Source of the DNA: Kiritimatiellia bacterium
GTDB taxonomy: Bacteria; Verrucomicrobiota; Kiritimatiellia; JAAZAB01
Assembly (NCBI GenBank): GCA_040767085.1
Contig: JAXGPF010000004.1
Location: 288,001-352,000, forward strand
Direction: 5' to 3'
Length of the DNA stretch: 64,000 bases
The stretch's first letter is position 1, and every line of letters begins with the position of its first letter. Below, in pieces: positions 27,513-39,081 of the stretch. A program made the translations under genes and the position numbers. Below the pieces are notes generated by a model, which was not told where the DNA came from, searched no databases, and was given only the letters and a program-made list of their open reading frames with translations.

Positions 27513-27708
27513 CTGCGCCACGCGTAGCCCAACGGGCGAATTGAAAACCAGTTCCCATGGGCGCAGAAGAGCCGTGAAAACATTATACATTGCAAACTCT
27601 TTCGAGAAGCCCATGCTTCGTTGACCTGTGGTCAACTACGCAGGGCACGCTTCGCCCTCTGGCCTCCGCCGTGGCTGCGCCACGCGTAGCCCAACGGGCG
27701 AAGCGTGG
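27513..27708. repeat. REP-like repeats downstream of tRNA-Ser, including an exact 28-bp direct repeat
   Basis: CTGCGCCACGCGTAGCCCAACGGGCGAA at 27513-27540 and 27675-27702; CTTCG-TTGACC-tgt-GGTCAA-CTACG unit at 27616-27640. Confidence 0.8.
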
Positions 27709-27793
27709 CGGAAGGGGTGGGAGTCGAACCCACGGTCCCCGAGAGGACGCCGGTTTTCAAGACCGGTGCTTTAGACCACTCAGCCACCCTTCC
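27706..27793 (-). tRNA. tRNA-Ser(TGA)
   Basis: GGAAGGG acceptor, CT-TGA-AA loop, long variable arm, GGTTCGACT, CCA; 88 nt. Confidence 0.97.
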
Positions 27794-27973
27794 CTCTCCC
27801 GCAAAATTTTTATTTCCCGCGTGACTTTTCCGTCTGCAAATTGCACAATCAGCATTCAAAAGGAAGCGGAATTTCCGGGGACGCCCGGCGCGGCAAGCCC
27901 GCGCGGTGTTGGAATCGCCGGCAAACCGGCGCCGCAAGCGCCCAGCCGCAGCCACAAGCAAGGAAAGGATAAC

Positions 27974-28669
27974 ATGAGCTTGAATATTGTGCAACAAATT
28001 GATGACCGTGTCGCCGTGCGCAACGTGCTGATCAGCGCCTGGGACAAGACCGGGCTCGAAGACCTGGCGCGGAACCTGGCGGAGATCAATCCCGGCCTGA
28101 AAATTTATTCCACCGGCGGCACCTTTAAAGCCCTGCAGACGGCCCTGGGCCCGGATCGCGCCGCGCGCAACCTGGCCCAGGTATCCGCTTACACCGGCCA
28201 GCCGGAAATGCAGGGCGGTTTGGTGAAAACCCTGGATTTCAAAATTTACCTCGGGCTGCTGAGCGAAACCTACAATCCGGACCATGCCCGCGACTTGCAG
28301 CGCCTCCAGGCCCTGGCGATTGACATGGTGGTGGTGAACCTCTACCCGTTCGCCCGCGTGGTCGCCGAGCCCGGCGCCACGCCGGAACAGGCGCGCACGC
28401 ATATCGATATCGGCGGCCCTTGCATGATCCGCGCCGCCGCCAAGAATTTCCTGCGGGTGGCCGCCGTCACGCAACCCGGCGACTATGGGCCCATCATCCA
28501 GGAATTGCGGGAGAATCGCGGCGCCATCGGATTACAAACGCGCTTTGAACTGGCGCGCAAGGCCTTTGCGCACACGGCGGAATACGACCGCCACATCGCC
28601 GGGTACCTCCAGCAATGCGCATTCGAGCAGGTCAAGGCGGGGTACCGATGCGGCAATGGCGGCAACTAA
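27974..28669 (+). CDS. purH: Stand-alone IMP cyclohydrolase (PurH N-terminal domain)
   Basis: LISAWDKTGL, STGGT, GQPEMQGGLVKTL, VVVNLYPF, IDIGGP.MIRAAAKN, KAF.HTA.YD; own RBS and stop. Confidence 0.9.
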   Translation: MSLNIVQQIDDRVAVRNVLISAWDKTGLEDLARNLAEINPGLKIYSTGGTFKALQTALGPDRAARNLAQVSAYTGQPEMQGGLVKTLDFKIYLGLLSETYNPDHARDLQRLQALAIDMVVVNLYPFARVVAEPGATPEQARTHIDIGGPCMIRAAAKNFLRVAAVTQPGDYGPIIQELRENRGAIGLQTRFELARKAFAHTAEYDRHIAGYLQQCAFEQVKAGYRCGNGGN

Positions 28670-28784: not shown

Positions 28785-30038
28785 ATGAGCGCTCCGGATT
28801 ACAAAAAAGCCTACAAAACCATCATGGACGACCATTTCACGCCGCAACTGGAAATCAGTTTCATCCAGGACGGCCAGCGCCAGACGCTTTATTACGAGAA
28901 AGCCGTCTGGCGGATTGACGGCGTGGAAAAAGGACTGCGCTACGGCGAGAACCCCGGCCAGGAAGCCGCGCTCTACCGCCTGGTCAACGGCAACCTCGCC
29001 CTGGGCACAGTCCAGTCCATCCAGCCCGGTCGTTACCTGGCGTCTGACGCCGAACTGCTGCAATCGGGCAAACATCCCGGCAAGACCAATCTGACCGACG
29101 TGGACAGCGCCTTGAATATTCTGCGTTACCTGATGGACGCGCCCTGCGTGGCAATCGTCAAGCACAACAATCCCTGCGGCGTGGCGCGCGCCGGCACCCT
29201 GGCGGAAGCCTATCAGCGCGCCAATGCCGCCGACATGGTAGCCGCCTTCGGGGGCGCGATTGTGGCCAACCGCCCCATGGACCGCGACACGGCCGAGCTG
29301 ATCGCCCAGCAATACGCCGAGGTGGTCGCGGCCCCGGAATTCGGACCGGGCGTCCTGGAAATCTTCGCGCGGAAGAAAAACCTGCGGGTCATGCGCGTAG
29401 CCAACATCGGCCGGCTGGCGGAATATGTTGGCGCGCGCGTGGTGGATTTCCGGGCGTTGATGGACGGCGGCCTCGTGGCGCAATGGTCATTCCAGCCCGT
29501 CACCCGCGCGCCGGCCCAGTTCCTGCCTGCAACGGCCACATATAAGGGCAAGGAATATAAAATCAACCGGCAACCCACGGAGCAGGAAGCCGCCGACCTG
29601 GTATTCGGCTGGCTGATCGAATGCGGCGTCACCAGCAACTCGGTGATCTATGTCAAAAACGGGGTGACCGTCGGCATCGGCACCGGCGAGCAGGACCGCG
29701 TGGGCGTGGCTGAAATTGCCCGGGACAAAGCCTACCGCAAGCTGGCCGACCGGCTGTGCCGCGAAAAATCCGGCATGCCGTACAATAACCTGCAGGATGC
29801 CGGGCAGCGCCGGGAGATTGACGCCGAAACCGCGCGGCAGCGCGGAGGGCTGCCGGGCGCCTGCATGGTGTCAGACGCCTTTTTCCCGTTCCGCGACGGC
29901 GTGGATGTGGGCTTACGCGAAGGCATCACCGCCGTCATCCAGCCCGGCGGCTCGGAGCGTGATTTCGAATCCATCGAGGCCTGCAACGAAGCCAACGCCG
30001 CCATGGTCTTCACCGGTCAGCGTTGTTTCCGACATTAA
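28785..30038 (+). CDS. purH: Stand-alone AICAR transformylase (PurH C-terminal domain)
   Basis: LRYGENP.Q.A, VKHNNPCG, AFGG, SN, SDAFFPF.DG, IQPGGS.RD, FTG.R.FRH. Confidence 0.92.
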   Translation: MSAPDYKKAYKTIMDDHFTPQLEISFIQDGQRQTLYYEKAVWRIDGVEKGLRYGENPGQEAALYRLVNGNLALGTVQSIQPGRYLASDAELLQSGKHPGKTNLTDVDSALNILRYLMDAPCVAIVKHNNPCGVARAGTLAEAYQRANAADMVAAFGGAIVANRPMDRDTAELIAQQYAEVVAAPEFGPGVLEIFARKKNLRVMRVANIGRLAEYVGARVVDFRALMDGGLVAQWSFQPVTRAPAQFLPATATYKGKEYKINRQPTEQEAADLVFGWLIECGVTSNSVIYVKNGVTVGIGTGEQDRVGVAEIARDKAYRKLADRLCREKSGMPYNNLQDAGQRREIDAETARQRGGLPGACMVSDAFFPFRDGVDVGLREGITAVIQPGGSERDFESIEACNEANAAMVFTGQRCFRH

Positions 30039-30088
30039 TTATTGCTTGTCCCGCCCTGGAATTTCTATATTATTTTGATGCCAGCAAT

Positions 30089-30703
30089 ATGAGCATACAC
30101 CAGAAAATCCGGACCGCGCTTTGCGTTTTGATCCCGGGCAGCTTGATCATGCTGCAGGGTTGCTGCTGCTTCGGCGGGCGCAAGTCCGCCGAAACCGTCA
30201 AGTATGAGGCCCACCCCCGGATTTCGCTGACACCGGAATGCCGGCAAATCAAGAAAGTGAGCGTCATGCCCTTCCGCGCCGCTACGGCAATTGCCGGCGA
30301 ATCCGTCGCCGACATGTTCGTCACGGAAATCATCAAGGAACAGATTTACGAAGTGGTTGAGCGCAGTCAGATTGACAAGGTGCTCAGCGAAAGCGAGGTG
30401 GCGCTGGCGGGCCTCACCAGTTCCAAGGCCGCGGAAATGGGCTCGATGCTGGGCGCGGACGCCGTGATCATCGGCACGGTGGATGAATACAGCATGATGC
30501 CGTCCAAGGACATGCATTTCGCCGTCGTCGGGATCAATGCCCGGATGATTGACTGTAAATCCGGCAAGATTTTATGGAGCATTGACCTGGCCCAGCGCGC
30601 GGGCTCCACGTCCGTCACCGTGCCGGAGCATGCCCGCGCGGTCGTGCGGGCCATGATCGAGGCGCTCCGCGCGGAATTGGCCAAAACCATGGGCGCATAT
30701 TGA
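30089..30703 (+). CDS. CsgG/TolB_N-like lipoprotein
   Basis: Lipobox LQGC; V.VMPF...YEVVERSQIDKVL.E...G.MLGADAVIIGTV...ARMIDCKSGKILW. Confidence 0.8.
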   Translation: MSIHQKIRTALCVLIPGSLIMLQGCCCFGGRKSAETVKYEAHPRISLTPECRQIKKVSVMPFRAATAIAGESVADMFVTEIIKEQIYEVVERSQIDKVLSESEVALAGLTSSKAAEMGSMLGADAVIIGTVDEYSMMPSKDMHFAVVGINARMIDCKSGKILWSIDLAQRAGSTSVTVPEHARAVVRAMIEALRAELAKTMGAY

Positions 30704-31854
30704 AAAACCGGCTCGCCAGCACGACATGGTCTGCTGTCCGCCTGACGCTATGGCCGCTGGTCCCGCTGCTGGCGGTAATGGCCGCCGGCTGCGCCACCGC
30801 GCCGCCGCTGCCCGCCGCCAAGCCCGCCGCGGAACCGCTCCGCACTACGCCGCCGCCCCGGGTCATCGTCCTGCTGAATGAAAAGGACGCCGGCGGCGCG
30901 GCCGCCGCGGAAGCGGAGTCGGCCGCCGTCAATTACCTGGTCGCCCATAACATCCCCGTGGTGGACCGGGCGGTCGTGCAGTCCAACCAGGAGAAAATCC
31001 AGGCGCTGCTGGCGCTGGCGGGCGACGACCAGGGCGCCGCCGCCATCGGCATGCAGTTCGGCGCCGATGTCATTCTCCGCGGCGAGGCGGAAGCCCGGCA
31101 GACCGCGGCCGGCATCCGCGGGAGCAAGTTGAACAGTTACCAGGGCAAGCTGGATCTCCGGGCGATTGACGCGGATGACGGGCAGATTCTTGCCGCCGCC
31201 GCCGCCGCCGTGCCGGCAATCGCCATGGACGCGGTCAATGGCTCCGCCCAGGCCTTGCAGTCCGCCGCCGCGCGCGCCCTGCCCGAGTTGCTGCCGAAAC
31301 TGCTCGCGGCCTGGGACACCAAGGCTGAAAACAAGGTCCGGCATCCGGGCCGGACCGGCATGTCGCTCTCCGCGGCATTGCGCCCGGCCGATGCCGATTC
31401 CGCCGCGGTGGAACTGCCCAAGCCGCCCCGCGGGCGCAAAACGCCGGTGGCAGCCATCTGGCGGCTGACCGCCCAGACGGGCGCGCAGCCGGAATGGATG
31501 GAGCCGCTGACGGAAACGCTGTACGCGGTGCTGTCGCAAAGCGGCTGGTTCCGCCTGGTCACCCGGGAGGACATGGAAAAAATCATGGCCGAGCATAACA
31601 TCCAGCTCAGCGACATCTGCGACACCACCGAACGGGCGATCGAATTAGGCAAAATCCTGAGCGCGCAGAAAATGCTGATCGGGACCGTCAGCAAACTGGG
31701 CGGCACCTACCAGGCGGTGGTCAAACTGGTGGACGTCGAAACCGGCGAAATTGAAAGCGTCGGCCAGGCGGATGCCAAGGGCACGATGGATGTCCTCTTT
31801 CAACTGGTGCGCCAGGCCAGCGCCGATCTTCTGGAACACGCGGGGCAGCGGTAA
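30700..31854 (+). CDS. Lipoprotein with two CsgG/FlgT-middle-like domains
   Basis: Lipobox AAGC; first domain GADVILRGEA...LRAIDADDGQIL; second domain FRLVTREDMEKIM.E...GKILSAQKMLIGTV...KLVDVETGEI. Confidence 0.72.
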   Translation: MKNRLASTTWSAVRLTLWPLVPLLAVMAAGCATAPPLPAAKPAAEPLRTTPPPRVIVLLNEKDAGGAAAAEAESAAVNYLVAHNIPVVDRAVVQSNQEKIQALLALAGDDQGAAAIGMQFGADVILRGEAEARQTAAGIRGSKLNSYQGKLDLRAIDADDGQILAAAAAAVPAIAMDAVNGSAQALQSAAARALPELLPKLLAAWDTKAENKVRHPGRTGMSLSAALRPADADSAAVELPKPPRGRKTPVAAIWRLTAQTGAQPEWMEPLTETLYAVLSQSGWFRLVTREDMEKIMAEHNIQLSDICDTTERAIELGKILSAQKMLIGTVSKLGGTYQAVVKLVDVETGEIESVGQADAKGTMDVLFQLVRQASADLLEHAGQR

Positions 31855-31971
31855 GAATTTTGCTTGCGTTGGCGGCCGGCGGCGTTAAACTGTAAACATC
31901 TTAAGGATGCCCATTTGCCAGCACAACGGTTTGGACGATCGCAATTCAACCCCGAGGACAGGAGAACGGTC

Positions 31972-33063
31972 ATGCAAAAGTCAGCGCGGGCGGTGTTGTG
32001 GGCGGCGGTATTGGCGGCCGCGGGCGCCTGGGCCCAGGACAAGGAGCAGGTAACGGTCATCCGGCAGGGCGCCGGCGGCGAAGTGCAGATCATTTCCAAG
32101 GAACAAACTGCGCCGGCGGAAACGGCCCCCACGGACGCCGCGCGCGAAGCGGCGCGGGCCGTGGCCGCCGACGACACGCCGCGCAAGGCGCGCGTGATGG
32201 TGATCCCGGCGATTTTCGCCCAGGAGCAACGCCGGCGTGTGGACCGCGAGTTTTTCGAGCGGTTCAACATCACCGATCCGGGTGTAATTGAAAACCCGGG
32301 GTACACCAGTTACCTGATTGACGCGCTGGTGAATGTCCGCAAATTCGACATGCTGGAGCGCGAGGAACTGCGGCAGGTGGTCAAGGAACTGGATTTCGGG
32401 GAAAGCGACTACGTGGATGTGGAAAAAGTCGTTAAAATCGGCAACATGGTCGGCGCGGACTACATGATCATCCCCACCATCCGCTACCTGGAAGTTGACC
32501 GCGAAACCAAAAACGTGCCGTATGTCGGCGGCCAGCAAATCGCCATCCGCTGCAAATTCGCCACCAACGTGCGCACGGTGGACGTGGCCTCCGGCAAGAT
32601 CATCGCCTCCGGCGTGCGCGAAGTGGAAAAGAAGAAACGCCAGCGGGCCCAGGACTCCCAGCGCATCCTCGTCATGGACACCGTGAGCGAGTGCTACAAG
32701 GAATCCGCCATGCTGGATGCCGCCAAGATCGTGGATGTGGCCTACCCCATCCGCATCATGAGCATTGACGGCAAGACGGTCATGCTCAACCGGGGCCAGG
32801 GCGCGATCCTGCCGGGCGAAGTCCTGAAAGTTTATGCCGCCGGCGAAGTCATGATCGACCCTGACACCAAGGACAACCTGGGCTACCATGAAACTTACCT
32901 GGGCTCGGTCAAGGTCACCGAAGTTGACTTGAAAACCAGCAAGGGCACAATTATTGACCAGCCCGGAACAATCGAGCGGTTGGCTATTTGCCGGCGCACC
33001 GAACAGCCTACACTGGCTGACCCGCGCCTGCAGCCGCCGACGGCGGCGCCCAAAATCGACTGA
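31972..33063 (+). CDS. Secreted CsgG/HfaB protein with FlgT-like C-terminal domain
   Basis: Signal peptide; LIDALVNVRKFDMLEREEL..VVKE, GADYMI, RTVDVASGKI; VMLNRG...MIDPDTKDNLG; AGGAG RBS. Confidence 0.8.
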   Translation: MQKSARAVLWAAVLAAAGAWAQDKEQVTVIRQGAGGEVQIISKEQTAPAETAPTDAAREAARAVAADDTPRKARVMVIPAIFAQEQRRRVDREFFERFNITDPGVIENPGYTSYLIDALVNVRKFDMLEREELRQVVKELDFGESDYVDVEKVVKIGNMVGADYMIIPTIRYLEVDRETKNVPYVGGQQIAIRCKFATNVRTVDVASGKIIASGVREVEKKKRQRAQDSQRILVMDTVSECYKESAMLDAAKIVDVAYPIRIMSIDGKTVMLNRGQGAILPGEVLKVYAAGEVMIDPDTKDNLGYHETYLGSVKVTEVDLKTSKGTIIDQPGTIERLAICRRTEQPTLADPRLQPPTAAPKID

Positions 33064-33199
33064 GCCGGCAACCGGAGACTTGCGCCGGGCCCGGCCGCGC
33101 GGCGCCGCCTGTGCCCCGGCCGGCAAACATGCCTGGAACTGGAACCGGCTTAATGGCCGGGCCTTGGACCGGGCGGCCATCTGAAGGAAGGATGTTAAG

Positions 33200-33631
33200 A
33201 TGACGGCAAAATTATTGGGCATGATGGCGCTGGCATTCGCGCTGGCCGGGCTGGCCGGCGGCTGCCGCAACCCGGTGACCTCCGCCGGCGCCACGATGGA
33301 GAGCTACGCCGGCAACCAGGTCAAGGTCAACTCGCGGGTTTTCGGCAAGCATTTCCGCGTGGCCAACGTGGCGACAGCCAGGGGCCAGAACCAGTTGCTG
33401 AAGACCACCGTCACGCTGGAAAACCTCCAGCAATTTTCCATGGCTTTCGAATACCGGTTCCGCTGGGTGGACGCCGAAGGCATTGAAATCGCCACCGGCA
33501 CAACGCTTTGGATTTCCAAGATCGCCGCGGCGCGCGAAATGGTGCTGATGACCGCCATCGCGCCCACGAAACTGGCGGAGGATTTTATTCTGGACGCCCG
33601 TTTTGTTTATCCCAGCACGCGCTGGAAATGA
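33200..33631 (+). CDS. YcfL/DUF1425-like lipoprotein
   Basis: Lipobox AGGC; L.N......FEYRFRW.D.EG.EI......W............AIAP motif. Confidence 0.8.
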   Translation: MTAKLLGMMALAFALAGLAGGCRNPVTSAGATMESYAGNQVKVNSRVFGKHFRVANVATARGQNQLLKTTVTLENLQQFSMAFEYRFRWVDAEGIEIATGTTLWISKIAAAREMVLMTAIAPTKLAEDFILDARFVYPSTRWK

Positions 33632-33677
33632 TACGGTCGCCGAGTATACGGCATTCAAGCGACAAGGAGCAATCAGC

Positions 33678-34310
33678 ATGCGGAAATCTATGTATTGGAC
33701 GCGGGCGGCGGGCGGCCTGGCCGCGCTGGCGCTGTTAGCCGGCTGCCGGTCGGTGGACATACCCCGGACCGGTTACGTCTCGCCCGAGGAAGAAGGCGTC
33801 ATGACCATCGCCCTGGATGACCACGATTACGACCTGGCCGCCGAAGGCATCGCCCGCGAGATGTTCATGCGCGGACTGCCGAAAGATTATGTCGTCGTCC
33901 TGGGCCCGGTGGATACCCGCGAATGCCCCTATGACGTGCGGGTGATCCAACTGCAGAAATCGCTGCAAGTGATTTTTAACCGCGAAGGGACGTTAAAATT
34001 CCTGACAGCGGCGGACGCCATGGCCGGCGGCACGGCGGTGGATGAAATCTACAAGATCATTCAATACAACTGGCTGAACAGCAACCCCATGGACCTGGAG
34101 GATTTGCAAACCTTCGGTCAACTGGCCCGCATCAACGGTATTCTGTTCGGGCGCGTCTCATCCCTGGAACGCAACCTGCCGGGGGGCGGCCGAGAAATCA
34201 GCTACCGCTTTGTCTGGGAACTCACCAATACCAAAACCGGCGTGCTGGACATCTCCCATGAACAGCGCATCCGCAAAAACATATCACGGGACATGCTGCT
34301 GAGGCAATGA
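33678..34310 (+). CDS. LpoB/YcfM-like lipoprotein
   Basis: Lipobox LAGC; Y.SP.....T..LD.HD...A; ILFGRVSS...Y.F..EL.N.KTG....S; follows the ycfL-like gene as in ycfL-lpoB loci. Confidence 0.7.
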   Translation: MRKSMYWTRAAGGLAALALLAGCRSVDIPRTGYVSPEEEGVMTIALDDHDYDLAAEGIAREMFMRGLPKDYVVVLGPVDTRECPYDVRVIQLQKSLQVIFNREGTLKFLTAADAMAGGTAVDEIYKIIQYNWLNSNPMDLEDLQTFGQLARINGILFGRVSSLERNLPGGGREISYRFVWELTNTKTGVLDISHEQRIRKNISRDMLLRQ

Positions 34311-34727
34311 TGCTTAAACGGTTTTTATTTTCCGCGGCTTTGTCGCTCGGCGCGGCGCTGGCCGGACTCACCGGCTGCCGCTCGCATTCCGGACCGCCGC
34401 CCGCCCCGCCGCCGGCCTGGACGCTTTCCCCTAAACCGGCTGACAGCGTTTACTGCTATTTTGTCGGGACTTCGACCGGCCAGTCCGCGCCCGCCGCGGC
34501 GCGCGAGGCCGCTTACCAGGACGCCTTGCGCCAGATATCCCGGCACATCGTCAGCGAGGCCGGCCTGGGTCTGGCCGCCTTGCCGCCGGGCGGCATCCTC
34601 CTGCCGCTGGAGGGAGCGGAGATCATGCCGGGCTGCTTCTATCAAAGGCGCTTACCGGGGGTATGTGCAGGTGAGTTTCCCGATCGCCGGGAAGCGCAAA
34701 GTTATCGAACGGCTGCGCCAGCCGTAA
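34307..34727 (+). pseudogene. LPP20-like lipoprotein, probably frameshifted at ~34643
   Basis: Lipobox LTGC; P.W...P..D..Y.YFVG.......AR..A...A...I (LPP20-like). The +1 frame tail KGAYRGYVQVSFP aligns with NGGTRCWLQVSLP of paralog 37831. Confidence 0.65.
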
Positions 34728-34737
34728 GGGGGTCAAA

Positions 34738-35316
34738 ATGAAATCGGCAGCGAAATGGCTGGTGGTACTGGGTCTGGGCATGGCTTGCCTTGCGGCGGGG
34801 GCGGCCGAGTTAGGCCGGTCGCAGCCGGTAGCCGTGGTCAATGACCGGCCCGGCGGCAGCGGCAAAGCGGCCGGGCTGCAACTGGCGCTTTTCGCGCCGA
34901 TCCAGGTGTTCCCGGAAAACTACAACATTTACGGGCTGCGCCTCAACCTGATTTACGGGATTAACCAGGACCTGCGCGGCCTGGACTTGGGTATGTTCAA
35001 TGTCGGGCGTGGTTTGATGGAAGGGCTGCAGGTCGGATTAGCCAATCGGACGGCGGAATTGTCCGGGATGCAGCTTGGCCTGCTGAACTTCACCGGCGCC
35101 TCCGAGGGCGGATTTCAACTGGGACTGATGAATTACGCGCATGAATTCGCCGGACTGCAGTTGGGACCGATCAATTTCGCCAAGGACGTCAATGGCGCAC
35201 AAATCGGCGTCATCAACATCTGCGAAACCACCGCCGGCGCCCAGATTGGCCTGATCAATATCATTTCCCAAAGCGATTGGCTGGTCTTCTGTCCGCTCGT
35301 TAACGCGCAATTCTGA
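34738..35316 (+). CDS. Secreted LA_2272-like repeat protein (GxQxGxxN repeats)
   Basis: Signal peptide; GLRLNLIYG.N....GLDLG followed by six G.Q(V/L/I)G..N repeats; terminal P.VN..F. Confidence 0.78.
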   Translation: MKSAAKWLVVLGLGMACLAAGAAELGRSQPVAVVNDRPGGSGKAAGLQLALFAPIQVFPENYNIYGLRLNLIYGINQDLRGLDLGMFNVGRGLMEGLQVGLANRTAELSGMQLGLLNFTGASEGGFQLGLMNYAHEFAGLQLGPINFAKDVNGAQIGVINICETTAGAQIGLINIISQSDWLVFCPLVNAQF

Positions 35317-37241
35317 TGAAGACTTCCCTGCCATGCCGGTTTCTGCTCTGCGCCCTGGCGCTGGCGGCGCACAACGGCCGCGCGCTGACGCCGGATGAGG
35401 CGGGCGTGCCGAAGCGGCTCCAGCCGACCATCATGGGCACGGTGGACCTCAACGAGGGCGGCACCAGGACCCTCAGCATGTCGCGATATGCCTCCACCTG
35501 GCTGGAGTCCAACGAAAAAGTCAGCGGGACGCTTATCCGTTCCGAAAGGGCCAACTGGAATGTCTTCGGGCCGGGATCCACCGTAAACCCCGGTGAAGAT
35601 ACGGTTACCATTAAAGCCACCAGAGCCGGCCAGGGCTATATCCAGGGGTATCGTTATCTTTATTATATGGATAACGGCGTGGAGCGGAGAAACATCCTCA
35701 TCCAGATCTGGCTGCTGAAGGTGCATCCCCTGACCGATGGATCTTCCAACAATGCTCCGACCGGCTCGCCCGGCGGGGCATGGCCGACTGAGAAGCCGGA
35801 CATCCCCCGGGCCGTCATCAAGGGGCGGGCGGTGATGCGTGGAACGGACACCGGTGTGCCTGGCGCATATATTGAACTGATCGGCGCCAGAACCGGCACG
35901 TTGCGCACCAACTGGGAAACTGGCGCCGACGGCGGATTTAACATTAAGGCGGACAACATGCTGTCCGCGGACCGGTACGAAATTTTTATCCGCAAAGGCT
36001 CCGCCAATGCCGCCCGGGAAGATGCCGTGATGGAGGATTTATGGCCGATCCGCAGGTATTACGTGACCGTGACCCGCGACAACTGCCTGAATCTTAACCT
36101 GGGCCGGATCGAAATGGCGTCCGTCGAGGATTTATGGGGCGCGGACCGGACGGCCGGCGCCGATGCCGCCCGCCCGGAACTTGACATTACCCCCAAGGCC
36201 GGACCCGGCGCCGGCGGCGGCCAGACGACTCCATCCGGGCAGATACCCGGCGGCGGCCAAACGCCCGGATCGGCAACAGCCCCGGGCGCCGGCGGCGGTC
36301 AAGCGCCGGGAACCGGCCCAACCCCGGGCGGCGGCGGGCAACCTCCGGCGCCGCCTCAAACACCGGATGCGCCGGATGCCCCCGGCACACCCCAGCCGCT
36401 GGACGATAGTGTGCCGGTTTTAATCGCCCCCGGCGCGATCGGCGCGGCAGCGGCTGCCCAATCCCTGCAAATTGTATATAAAGGCTATGTTGAAGTAGAT
36501 TTCAACCTTAAGGCCACCATGACCTTAAAACTTGCCGGATCGGCCGTGACCGGCGAGTTATACGCGCCGCCGGTGTCCCAGCCCAATGTGCGGCTGCCGG
36601 GCGCGCGTATGCTGCTGGACGGCACGCTGGCAGGCGGCTGGGAGGATGGCGGCAGGATTACCGGGAGTTGCACCGGCCATATCCTGTGGCCGGACGGCAA
36701 GCAGGAAGAGCGCGCGGGCCAGTTTCAAATCGCAAAGGCCGGCGCGGAAATTCACTTCCGCAGCACGAAGTTTTATTATAACCACTACATTTTCGGCGCA
36801 TTGGGTATAAAATACGCCGGCGGCAATGCCGTAACCAACGCTGCCGGCACAAGCCTTAATTCCGTCTTGATCCTGATTGATGCTTCCGGCAGCATGCAGG
36901 GCGAAAAAATCAACCGGGCCAAGTCCACGGCCTGCCGGCGCATTGCCGAACTGGGGCCGGAGACCGAGTTAGCCGTGATCGCTTTCAGCGGCAATTCCCT
37001 GAAATTCCAGTTTGCGCCCATGGATGACGATGGGCGCGCGCGCGCCCAGGAAGCCGTCAATGGCGTCAGCGCCGGCGGCGGTACGCCCCTGGCCGCCGCT
37101 ATCCGCAGCGCCGGCAGTTATATACGCGGCAACGCCCGGTCGAAAAACAAGACTTTGATCATTCTATCGGACGGCGAAGAAAGCGAAGGCGGCAACCCGC
37201 CGGAGGAAATCCGCAAGCTGAACGATGTGACGGTAAATTAA
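35316..37241 (+). CDS. Secreted modular protein with Gly/Pro linker and C-terminally incomplete VWA domain
   Basis: Signal peptide; Ig/carboxypeptidase-regulatory-like domain (IKGR...GVPGA.IEL...TGADGGF); four GGGQ repeats; MIDAS DASGSM, GGTPL, LSDG; stops about 20 aa after the DG. Confidence 0.8.
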   Translation: MKTSLPCRFLLCALALAAHNGRALTPDEAGVPKRLQPTIMGTVDLNEGGTRTLSMSRYASTWLESNEKVSGTLIRSERANWNVFGPGSTVNPGEDTVTIKATRAGQGYIQGYRYLYYMDNGVERRNILIQIWLLKVHPLTDGSSNNAPTGSPGGAWPTEKPDIPRAVIKGRAVMRGTDTGVPGAYIELIGARTGTLRTNWETGADGGFNIKADNMLSADRYEIFIRKGSANAAREDAVMEDLWPIRRYYVTVTRDNCLNLNLGRIEMASVEDLWGADRTAGADAARPELDITPKAGPGAGGGQTTPSGQIPGGGQTPGSATAPGAGGGQAPGTGPTPGGGGQPPAPPQTPDAPDAPGTPQPLDDSVPVLIAPGAIGAAAAAQSLQIVYKGYVEVDFNLKATMTLKLAGSAVTGELYAPPVSQPNVRLPGARMLLDGTLAGGWEDGGRITGSCTGHILWPDGKQEERAGQFQIAKAGAEIHFRSTKFYYNHYIFGALGIKYAGGNAVTNAAGTSLNSVLILIDASGSMQGEKINRAKSTACRRIAELGPETELAVIAFSGNSLKFQFAPMDDDGRARAQEAVNGVSAGGGTPLAAAIRSAGSYIRGNARSKNKTLIILSDGEESEGGNPPEEIRKLNDVTVN

Positions 37242-37246
37242 CCGTT

Positions 37247-37825
37247 ATGAAAATTTTACGTCCCATGATGATGTGCGCAGCGGCGGCGCTGGTTTGCGCG
37301 CAGGCCGGCGCGCAGGATGCCGCACCCGGACCGGCGAGCCGGGATTTAATCAACATTGTCGCCGTCGGCTATGACATTGAAAACAATCCCAAGGCCCAGC
37401 AAATGCTCCAGGATATGGCGCAGGCCGCCCGCGATGCCGGCGCCGGCGGCACCGTGATCATGGCCGGGCAGGACGAGGCACAACTGGACCAGGCCATGCA
37501 AAAGGCCATGACCATCGCCACCCAGCCGCCGGCGCCGGCATACCGGCTGGAACTCAAGACCGCTTCCGCCGCGCCGGGGGCCAGGATCGTGGTGGTGCAT
37601 TCCGATTTCCCGGCAACGAACCGCGAGGCCTGGATTGCCTTTTATGAAAAGGCCGGCGACCGCGACCAGGACTATCTGTCTTATACCTTTCTGGCCAACC
37701 TGAACGATCGGACATACGATGTCACGGCCCCTGACAAGCCCGGCGCCGAGTATCATTTCCGCCTTTTTTTAACCAAGGAATACGATTGCGCCGCCCGCAG
37801 TGAACCAGTCCATATCGCCGAATAA
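37247..37825 (+). CDS. Secreted protein: VWA C-terminal-like segment plus Ig-like domain
   Basis: Own signal peptide (AQAGA|Q); INIVAVGYDI...AQQMLQDMAQA...GG....A.QDEAQLDQAM; then AWIAFY...YLSY...APDKPG.EY.FRLF beta-sandwich. Confidence 0.7.
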   Translation: MKILRPMMMCAAAALVCAQAGAQDAAPGPASRDLINIVAVGYDIENNPKAQQMLQDMAQAARDAGAGGTVIMAGQDEAQLDQAMQKAMTIATQPPAPAYRLELKTASAAPGARIVVVHSDFPATNREAWIAFYEKAGDRDQDYLSYTFLANLNDRTYDVTAPDKPGAEYHFRLFLTKEYDCAARSEPVHIAE

Positions 37826-37830
37826 TCTGC

Positions 37831-39081
37831 ATGAAGTTTTTCCGCCTGTTTTTGATGAGCCTTGCACTGCTGGCGGGTTGGCCGGCAGTTCCAGTTGGCG
37901 CCGCGCCGGATTACCGTCCGCTCTGGATCGAGCAGCCTAAAAGCGACGACAGCATTTACCTTTACCGCGTCGGCACCGCCGCCGCCGGATCGGAAACCGC
38001 GGCGCGCCAGGCCGCCCTGGTCCAAGCCGGCGAAATCATCCTGGATGAAATCCTCGCGCAAAGCGGCGTGCCGGAAACAGAGCGCGTTGAATTGCGCGGC
38101 GCTCTGGCGTTGCGGGATTTGACGCCGGTTCCCGACGCCGTGCATTATGCCCCTGAAAACGGCGGCACCCGGTGCTGGCTGCAGGTCAGTCTGCCGTTGC
38201 AGGAGCGCGCCCGCCTGCGGCAGGACATCGCGGCCGCCATGGAGCGCCGCCGCTTGCAGGAGGAATTCGACGCCCGCATCAACGGGCAATGGCAGGAGGG
38301 CCGGGCCGCCAGCCTGCGGGGCGAATACACCCAGGCCCTGGCGCTCTTGCGGGAGGCCGAAACCAACTTTGCCGCGGTCCATCGCCCGGCATTTGCGATG
38401 GAGGAACTGCGCCTGCTGCTGGGCGATGTGCAGCGGGAACTAGGCCGGCCCCTGGACGCGCGCGGTTACTACGAAACCGTGGCCGGACTGGCAACCGCTG
38501 AAACCTGGCAGGCGCAGGCGGCGGCGCGCCTGGCGGCGCTGCCCGATCCGCCGCGCCTATGGCCGGCGCTGACCCGTTGGCAGGACCGCGCCGCGGCGCA
38601 AGTCTGCGTATTGCAGCCGGCCGGCGATCCGGCGGCATGGTTTGGCGAACTTGCCGCGGTGCTGCACCGCGATTTTCAAGCCTGCCGGCGGGATTTGTGC
38701 GACCTGGCCCAGTGGCCGCCGGAATCCGCCGCGCAGCTTTTCATAACGCGCCAGACGGCAGCCCTGGCCGGCGCCGCCCGCGCCGCATCGGCTGGAATGG
38801 TGCTGGTGATCTACGCCCGGGGGGATGCCACCGGTGGCGGGACGCCGCCGGAAACGGGCGGACTGCGCTTCCCCGCGCCGGATATGACCGTCCAATTCAT
38901 GGTGTTGGACGCCATCGCCAATCGCATCGTATATGCCGGCGAATTCCGGGAAATGCGCGGCCGGCGCGGCAACGCGCGGCTGGCCGAACGGATTGCGTCA
39001 ATCCTGATCAACAATTACCTGGCGCCCAAATGTCCGGCGCTGGCGCCCGGGCCAGGCGGCGCGGCGGCCGGCCCCGGATAA
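37831..39081 (+). CDS. Secreted LPP20-like/TPR-like protein
   Basis: Signal peptide; P.W...P..D.S.Y.Y.VG......AR.AA N-domain; TPR-like helices (GEYTQALALL..., LLGDVQRELG....ARGYY). Confidence 0.68.
   Translation: MKFFRLFLMSLALLAGWPAVPVGAAPDYRPLWIEQPKSDDSIYLYRVGTAAAGSETAARQAALVQAGEIILDEILAQSGVPETERVELRGALALRDLTPVPDAVHYAPENGGTRCWLQVSLPLQERARLRQDIAAAMERRRLQEEFDARINGQWQEGRAASLRGEYTQALALLREAETNFAAVHRPAFAMEELRLLLGDVQRELGRPLDARGYYETVAGLATAETWQAQAAARLAALPDPPRLWPALTRWQDRAAAQVCVLQPAGDPAAWFGELAAVLHRDFQACRRDLCDLAQWPPESAAQLFITRQTAALAGAARAASAGMVLVIYARGDATGGGTPPETGGLRFPAPDMTVQFMVLDAIANRIVYAGEFREMRGRRGNARLAERIASILINNYLAPKCPALAPGPGGAAAGPG

Follow-up and report, generated by a model that had tools for sequence, protein, structure and literature searches.

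We analysed a stretch of 64,000 nucleotides (nt) from a Kiritimatiellia bacterium (GenBank assembly GCA_040767085.1, contig JAXGPF010000004.1, positions 288,001 to 352,000 of the forward strand), referred to here as the window. Two adjacent genes in it, A and B, probably encode two exported proteins that complete a single VWA domain in trans. Positions are those of the window, and all features described lie on its forward strand. Gene A (35316..37241), defined as an open reading frame (ORF), encodes a predicted secreted protein of 641 residues. Its N-terminal domains are followed by a Pro/Gly-rich linker and then by a beta-rich ‘FYYN’ domain, and the C-terminus is formed by a truncated VWA domain (36861..37238, residues 516-641), which according to Pfam and hhalign extends from strand beta1 to helix alpha5 only. 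Pfam matches residues 517-639 to VWA_2 with 49.4 bits (cut-off 27) and to VWA with 42.4 bits (cut-off 23.8), and the match spans just profile positions 2-131 of 174. When A is compared by hhalign with 11 intact VWA domains of related genomes (alignment A5), the aligned part is columns 7-131 of 204, with a probability (Prob) of 97.8%, and ends at ...PPEEIRKL. The C-terminus of the protein is ...LSDGEESEGGNPPEEIRKLNDVTVN, followed by TAA. The stop lies 7-8 residues past alpha5, so that the six-stranded beta1-alpha7 fold is incomplete in the single chain of A, ~60 residues short.

The metal ion-dependent adhesion site (MIDAS) lies within the part that is present. The DxSxS motif (D522-A-S524-G-S526) is encoded at 36879..36893, and the further residues T590 and D619 at 37083-37085 and 37170-37172. 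These five residues, which we take from established knowledge of VWA domains to be the MIDAS residues, do not vary in any of the 11 aligned A relatives, and metal binding is predicted. Protein A begins with a predicted leader whose hydrophobic region has a mean Kyte-Doolittle value over 10 residues (KD10) of 2.77. A hydrophobic leader is present in all 10 A orthologs, which are 605-643 residues long, are 46-78% identical and have a common end point. The signal peptides of both A and B were predicted with a Kyte-Doolittle heuristic, and AxA-like sites were judged by eye.

Gene B (37247..37825, an ORF) encodes a predicted secreted protein of 192 residues. Its predicted signal peptide (37247..37312, approximately residues 1-22) has a KD10 of 2.40 with two K/R residues ahead, is probably cleaved near AQA/GAQ and is followed by ...DLINIVAVGYDIENNPKAQQMLQDMAQAARDAGAGGTVIMAGQDEAQLDQAMQKAM. 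A hydrophobic N-terminal leader was found in 27 of the 28 collected B members; P0032 lacks one, perhaps because its gene call is truncated. The possibility that B is a lipoprotein was rejected by eye, as the orthologs have no conserved lipobox Cys. After the leader comes a module (37337..37525, residues 31-93) with a beta-alpha-beta-alpha pattern, which we propose, from modelling, to be beta5-alpha6-beta6-alpha7 of the VWA domain. Behind a Pro-rich linker, the protein ends in an immunoglobulin (Ig)/SKICH-like beta-sandwich (37547..37816, residues 101-190), identified with AlphaFold2 (AF2) and Foldseek. The best Foldseek matches of the sandwich are SKICH and Ig V-like domains (E ~1e-4, TM-score 0.3-0.58).

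At the junction (37239..37246), the TAA of A is followed by a 5-nt spacer (ccgtt) and then by the ATG of B. Because A is read in frame 0 and B in frame +2, the pair cannot be explained by a single nonsense change. A preliminary description of this DNA had likewise discounted a plain nonsense mutation. It had also correctly quoted the coordinates and motifs of A, with all MIDAS residues present, the early end of the VWA domain and B starting 5 nt further on, and had credited B with a signal peptide of its own, in agreement with the leader heuristic. Two checks that it had proposed, coverage across 37230-37260 and a search for the same split in homologs, came out in favour of a real break. Three runs, one from each of three other studies (X2, X3 and X5), have contigs that span 37230-37260 with no differences and no gaps, and the homologs are described below. 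A further run, guessed to be RNA and from a diverged relative (X20), covers 9 of 30 bins and does not reach the junction.

Conservation of the split and of the B module

Thirteen database relatives of A were found and 12 of them were aligned; P0014 (28% identity over 20% of A) was excluded from the alignments because only the VWA domain is in common. Ten of the 12 end at ...RRLND-x-TV-x-W, and the window genus ends at ...TVN. The other two are P0011, a deletion-fusion, and P0013, a paralog running on into other domains. The stop codon of A is TAA in the window and TGA in G001-G003, with the break position retained. A VWA gene cut after alpha5 was found directly upstream of B in all 11 distinct loci with a visible upstream side (G000, G001, G002, G003, L021, L022, L023, L025, L030, L032 and L066). 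These loci come from Kiritimatiellia-type metagenome-assembled genomes (MAGs) and from the chromosome of a Desulfatiglandales MAG (L030), representing two phyla. The L023 copy of A carries an extra frameshift within that contig. Three A architectures have the break in common: the form of 605-643 residues, the L032 paralog, in which ~270 more residues follow the break ahead of a separate B gene, and a 370-residue form with a different N-terminus in L066. The genes around the pair in L030 and L022 are unrelated to those of the window, suggesting that the A/B pair moves as a unit. The pair is sparsely distributed. A turned up in 7 of the 301 species-representative genomes of the class. B matches were obtained in 8 of 61 relatives, and outside the genus and G016 just the C-terminal sandwich was matched. 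Of 401 genomes of the phylum, five had a match to the module. One of these matches, in L067 (G090, E 9.6e-5), is to a 609-residue non-VWA protein with a similar beta-alpha-beta stretch and was treated as chance.

The arrangement of the two genes differs among these lineages. In L022, L025 and L030, A and B are in frame and separated by the stop and 9 nt (stop-GGAGGnnnn-ATG), which places GGAGG 4 nt upstream of the B ATG in three distant loci. The spacing is 7 nt in L023 and 16 nt in L066, and the genes overlap in ATGA in L032. Because both spacer and frame vary, no single recoding mechanism covers all loci. The GGAGG before B would fit independent initiation, and the short A-B distances would fit coupled translation. 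Within the genus, the ratio of nonsynonymous to synonymous substitution rates (dN/dS) is 0.10-0.23 for the VWA tail of A, 0.07-0.22 for the B module and 0.13-0.23 for the B sandwich; the B leader, at 0.26-0.63, is looser than the mature part. Judged from these sequences, the split arose long ago, has been conserved and is subject to purifying selection, and is neither an artefact nor a fresh pseudogene.

Rearranged versions of the locus occur in two assemblies. L031 (= G016:C80) shares 100% identity with P0007, a split-form protein, as far as ...ELAVIAFS and then jumps to ...DIEASPEAQKML of B, an in-frame deletion-fusion in which the middle of the VWA domain, the stop and the B leader are all gone. 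P0011, compared with P0006, jumps in frame from just ahead of VWA beta1 into the last helix of B. Both junctions are located at short, similar beta-strand sequences. Population variation or misassembly could account for the two deletion-fusions, and genuine ones would mean that an A-B fusion lacking the VWA domain is produced in some strains.

The B orthologs in G001-G003 are 81-87% identical to B. In more distant loci, the module of the window B is 75% (L022), 75% (L030), 70% (L025) and 67% (L023) identical, and the whole-A orthologs there are 49-55% identical. By these identities, conservation is higher in the module than over the full length of A. Residues G41, D43 and L80 of B are invariant. 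Searching 1.84 billion representative proteins with a module profile (alignment A4, 63 residues, nine sequences) produced 24 matches at E<=0.001. Twenty-two of them are proteins of 139-279 residues in which the module is exclusively N-terminal: 20 have a leader and then the module, and two have the module from residue 1. P0042 and P0043 are fragments beginning inside the module. The remaining two matches are long repeat proteins with 4-7 short stretches matched, which we regard as chance. None of the 24 matches places the module inside an intact VWA protein. None of 8000 longer candidate proteins scored as a fused form of B, which is weak evidence, and a search of the ESM Atlas with the module gave no usable match.

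The part that follows the module and a Pro- or Gly-rich linker varies. It is mostly an Ig/SKICH-like sandwich; short tails and helical repeats also occur, and one of the 28 B members has an LCCL domain. In three of the 28 (L025:660-1403, which is P0024, P0027 and P0032), a Gly-rich linker is followed by a transmembrane (TM) helix and a forkhead-associated (FHA) domain (PF00498, best E 4.4e-20). A hydrophobic 19-residue stretch lies behind the module in each of the three, with mean Kyte-Doolittle values over 19 residues (KD19) of 3.1-3.4. In such proteins the VWA piece would sit outside the membrane and the phosphothreonine-binding domain inside. The window B has no Pfam match, and so no FHA domain, and no TM helix.

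The sandwich of B has the motif AWIGFY...YISYTFLNNL...YDV.AP..PG.Y.FRLF and is without a Pfam model. The same type of sandwich also closes other long Kiritimatiellia proteins, in one of them right behind an intact VWA domain. It closes unrelated long secreted proteins in L011 (G038:C62), L006 (G038:C5) and L009 (G003:C275), one of which has a caspase-like peptidase domain. One possible role of the sandwich is in anchoring or sorting, as a domain shared among Kiritimatiellia.

Proposed completion of the VWA fold

The in-frame L022 pair was read through and folded with AF2. The input comprised 140 residues of the A tail, X at the stop, GGN and residues 1-97 of B, with the B leader serving as a 35-residue linker and with an alignment of 36 rows. 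The L032 row was left out of this alignment because MAFFT had misaligned the second half of its tail onto the B module. The resulting model has a predicted local distance difference test score (pLDDT) of 86.9 and a predicted template modelling score (pTM) of 0.84; by part, pLDDT is 86-98 for A, 53-58 for the leader and 90-98 for the B module. A provides strands (E) and helices (H) E13-20, H28-42, E48-55, H69-80, H90-104, E109-116 and H126-133, and its last seven residues form coil. B provides E176-183, H189-204, E209-214 and H218-233. The model (residues 11-237) superposes on 4fx5 with a Z score of 21.9 and a root mean square deviation (rmsd) of 2.3 Å over 178 aligned residues, and on the integrin I domains 1jlm, 1mf7 and 1n3y with Z scores of 18.8-19.1 over 177-182 aligned residues of 187-194. 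Since A supplies only model residues 11-133, at least ~55 of the aligned residues come from B. The A and B parts are compatible with one VWA fold in this tethered model, in which B is placed as the last two strands and helices of the domain, as the preliminary description had supposed.

In alignment A7, MAFFT set the middle beta-alpha-beta of the L032 paralog VWA domain (row L032:696-1115; around the MIDAS Thr and beta4) onto the B module. This placement is probably a misalignment of similar beta-alpha-beta patterns; alternatively, it might point to an internal duplication as the source of the module.

Genome G024, which belongs to the window's family, encodes an unsplit protein (L007/P0049). 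This protein has an intact VWA domain with MIDAS, a Pro-rich linker and the same sandwich as B in one continuous chain, with no stop and no internal signal peptide, and it differs from the pair also in that its VWA domain belongs to the VWA_4 / integrin-beta-like subfamily. The B family profile aligns residues 32-192 of B with residues 432-604 of this protein, colinear from the VWA beta5 position onwards (hhalign Prob 99.4%). These sequence relations fit an origin of A and B by fission of a protein of the type [N-terminal domains]-VWA-linker-sandwich. The preliminary description had pointed to an Ig-like domain following the VWA domain, in agreement with the layout of the G024 protein.

We consider it probable that A and B together form one VWA domain, and the following mechanism is proposed. 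The domain would have been divided long ago by gene fission, with the cut between helix alpha5 and strand beta5, and each half would have retained or acquired a Sec-type signal peptide. The tightly spaced genes are probably translationally coupled. Both proteins would be exported unfolded by Sec, as their leaders suggest. In the periplasm or at the cell surface, the B module would enter as beta5-alpha6-beta6-alpha7 beside beta4 of A and thereby finish, as in the model, the six-stranded sheet around the intact MIDAS metal site. The product would be a stable heterodimer, with the ligand-binding face and the N-terminal domains on A and a lineage-variable C-terminal domain on B. We infer export of both proteins, assembly in trans and binding of a metal or ligand from these features, and a function of the complex through its MIDAS face from what is typical of the family.

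A number of results weigh against this reading. The preliminary description had seen a match between the B sequence and the C-terminus of VWA domains, which was not borne out: hhalign of the B module against the 11 intact VWA domains gives a Prob of 0.4%, a PDB profile search with the module yields no VWA domain among nine matches, and Pfam detects VWA in none of the 28 B members. Joining the A tail, X and the B module lifts the hhalign score against intact VWA domains by only 2.3 (from 99.4 to 101.7), and A+B is colinear with VWA (columns 2-192 of 204, with B on beta5-alpha7) in greedy mode only. The significance of the G024 alignment comes mainly from the sandwich, with low posterior values over the VWA part. 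B by itself is also modelled as beta-alpha-beta-alpha (E36-39, H48-63, E70-73 and H77-91), although this prediction has a pLDDT of 55-78 (72-90 for the sandwich) and was made with a different sequence and a shallower alignment. The reconstitution of one VWA fold from two proteins, as proposed in the preliminary description, stands as the best-supported reading; that description had also raised a possible docking or activation switch. The structural support is one tethered single-chain model of an ortholog (L022) rather than of the window's own pair, with neither a negative control nor a fold of A by itself, and VWA is a fold well known to AF2. The two assemblies with deletion-fusions (L031/G016 and P0011) lack most or all of the VWA domain, and the domain may therefore be dispensable in some strains.

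Several of these points speak for an alternative in which the shortened VWA domain of A is self-sufficient and B is an independent small alpha/beta protein, co-regulated with A or bound to it elsewhere as an accessory or anchor. The lack of significant profile similarity between the B module and the VWA C-terminus, the beta-alpha-beta-alpha prediction for B by itself and the uncontrolled tethered fold would all be in keeping with it. We nevertheless regard this alternative as somewhat unlikely. The chain of A ends so soon after alpha5 that ~60 residues of the canonical fold are missing, and in the model the pLDDT of the module rises to 90-98 next to A, at exactly the canonical positions. The module is also more conserved than the whole of A, and the unsplit VWA-linker-sandwich relative is colinear with B.

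Other explanations would dispense with two separate proteins. If recoding, by stop read-through or frameshifting, yielded one fused protein, what looks like a ‘signal peptide’ in B would instead be a hydrophobic loop within the chain. The loci in which A and B are in frame, one stop and 9 nt apart (L022, L025 and L030), would suit this idea, but the same loci carry GGAGG 4 nt ahead of the B ATG, which fits independent initiation. The frame relation varies elsewhere (+2 in the window genus, with 7 nt, ATGA overlap and 16 nt in L023, L032 and L066), ~270 residues lie between the break and B in the L032 paralog, and the leader evolves like a signal peptide. Recoding is therefore very improbable. 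That mutation or misassembly broke a VWA gene is the least probable explanation of all. The rearranged versions of the locus in L031/G016 and P0011 might be cited in its favour, but independent assemblies from two phyla have the break in common at 11 of 11 loci, both halves are under purifying selection, and the junction is identical in contigs of three other studies.

Gene neighbourhood

The A/B pair lies in a same-strand cluster at 30023-39081. The upstream run of envelope genes (30023..35316) contains CsgG/LpoB-like genes at 30023, 30700 and 31864, a gene for a DUF1425 protein at 33200, a gene for an LpoB-like lipoprotein at 33603 and a gene for an LA_2272-repeat protein at 34738, all assigned with Pfam and NCBIfam, as well as a small-protein gene with a ‘DSVY.Y.VGT’ motif at 34307. 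Downstream of B, a gene at 37831..39081 encodes a 416-residue predicted secreted protein with weak TPR-like matches, which is conserved after B in G001 and G016. The ‘DSVY.Y.VGT’ motif is also found at the N-terminus of this protein. Homologs of the genes at 33603 and 34307 also adjoin the A/B pair of G190, and none were found beside the pairs in L022 and L030. The neighbours recur in one case and not in the others, so the A/B pair itself is the conserved core. An envelope or surface role for the pair is likely. No kinase or type VI secretion system (T6SS) genes were seen near the pair, and Pfam and NCBIfam scans of the neighbour genes revealed no usher or chaperone family.

Further upstream, a purH-like gene (AICARFT/IMPCHase) is present as two ORFs, at 27590-28669 and 28785-30038. 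The first encodes an MGS-like domain and AICARFT profile positions 1-59, and the second encodes positions 76-311. The ~115 nt between them contain stops in all three frames. This gene may have been affected by a split, a frameshift or an insertion.

Relation to known systems and significance

Single-chain bacterial VWA domains (PF00092/PF13519; for instance 4fx5 from Catenulispora and BatB, 3ibs) have the same DxSxS, T and D MIDAS residues as A, and the A+B model superposes on them with Z scores of 19-21.9 over 172-178 residues. In these proteins beta1-alpha7 form one polypeptide, whereas in the pair modelled here beta5-alpha7 would be located on a second exported protein, and their profiles do not detect the B module at the sequence level. 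Integrin alpha I domains likewise have the fold of the A+B model and differ in being one chain. In integrin I domains, the C-terminal alpha7 helix passes MIDAS occupancy to the next domain. A functional analogy exists with the donor-strand complementation of chaperone-usher systems, in which an incomplete exported fold is likewise finished in the periplasm by another exported protein. Donor-strand complementation involves an Ig-like fold, a single strand, a chaperone cycle and polymerisation. A and B, in contrast, would form a 1:1 pair with a Rossmann-like fold to which two strands and two helices are contributed, and there is no family relationship.

In type VI secretion, PpkA and Fha1 combine a periplasmic VWA domain with cytoplasmic FHA signalling. 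In three of the 28 B relatives, a single chain carries the extracytoplasmic module together with a TM helix and a cytoplasmic FHA domain; the window B has neither of the latter two. It is conceivable, if rather unlikely, that the split is functional and serves as a two-piece connector, with A, which occurs with at least three N-terminal architectures, as a MIDAS ‘head’ and B as interchangeable ‘tails’. A ligand signal would then pass through alpha7, the relaying element of integrin I domains, to the C-terminal domain of B and, in the TM-FHA variants, across the inner membrane to phospho-threonine signalling.

Naturally split genes are known from cox2 and Doa10, whose complementary fragments are thought to reassemble (PMC5374615, PMC3464245). 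They are splits of eukaryotic or organellar membrane proteins, whereas the cut between A and B falls within a soluble extracytoplasmic domain, both halves of which have a predicted signal peptide. VWA domains are well known, and in open-access texts we did not find a naturally split VWA domain with an export signal on each half: the phrase ‘split VWA’ has no occurrence in ~8.4 million full texts, and an open-access search on gene fission and fold complementation gave nothing about VWA.

The A/B pair has implications for both annotation and biology. In the A family, the label ‘VWA domain-containing protein’ covers just two thirds of a domain. It is rare for a cut inside a single soluble domain to leave two halves that are exported separately and that selection has preserved across phyla. 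If the two halves assemble as modelled, the pair would be a natural case of fold complementation outside the cytoplasm, a ready split-domain pair for protein engineering and a case for the origin of a signal peptide at a fission point. The TM-FHA relatives would, in the same event, provide a route from an extracytoplasmic MIDAS to cytoplasmic signalling. If the proposed relay is true as well, A and B would represent a bacterial two-chain analogue of integrin outside-in signalling.

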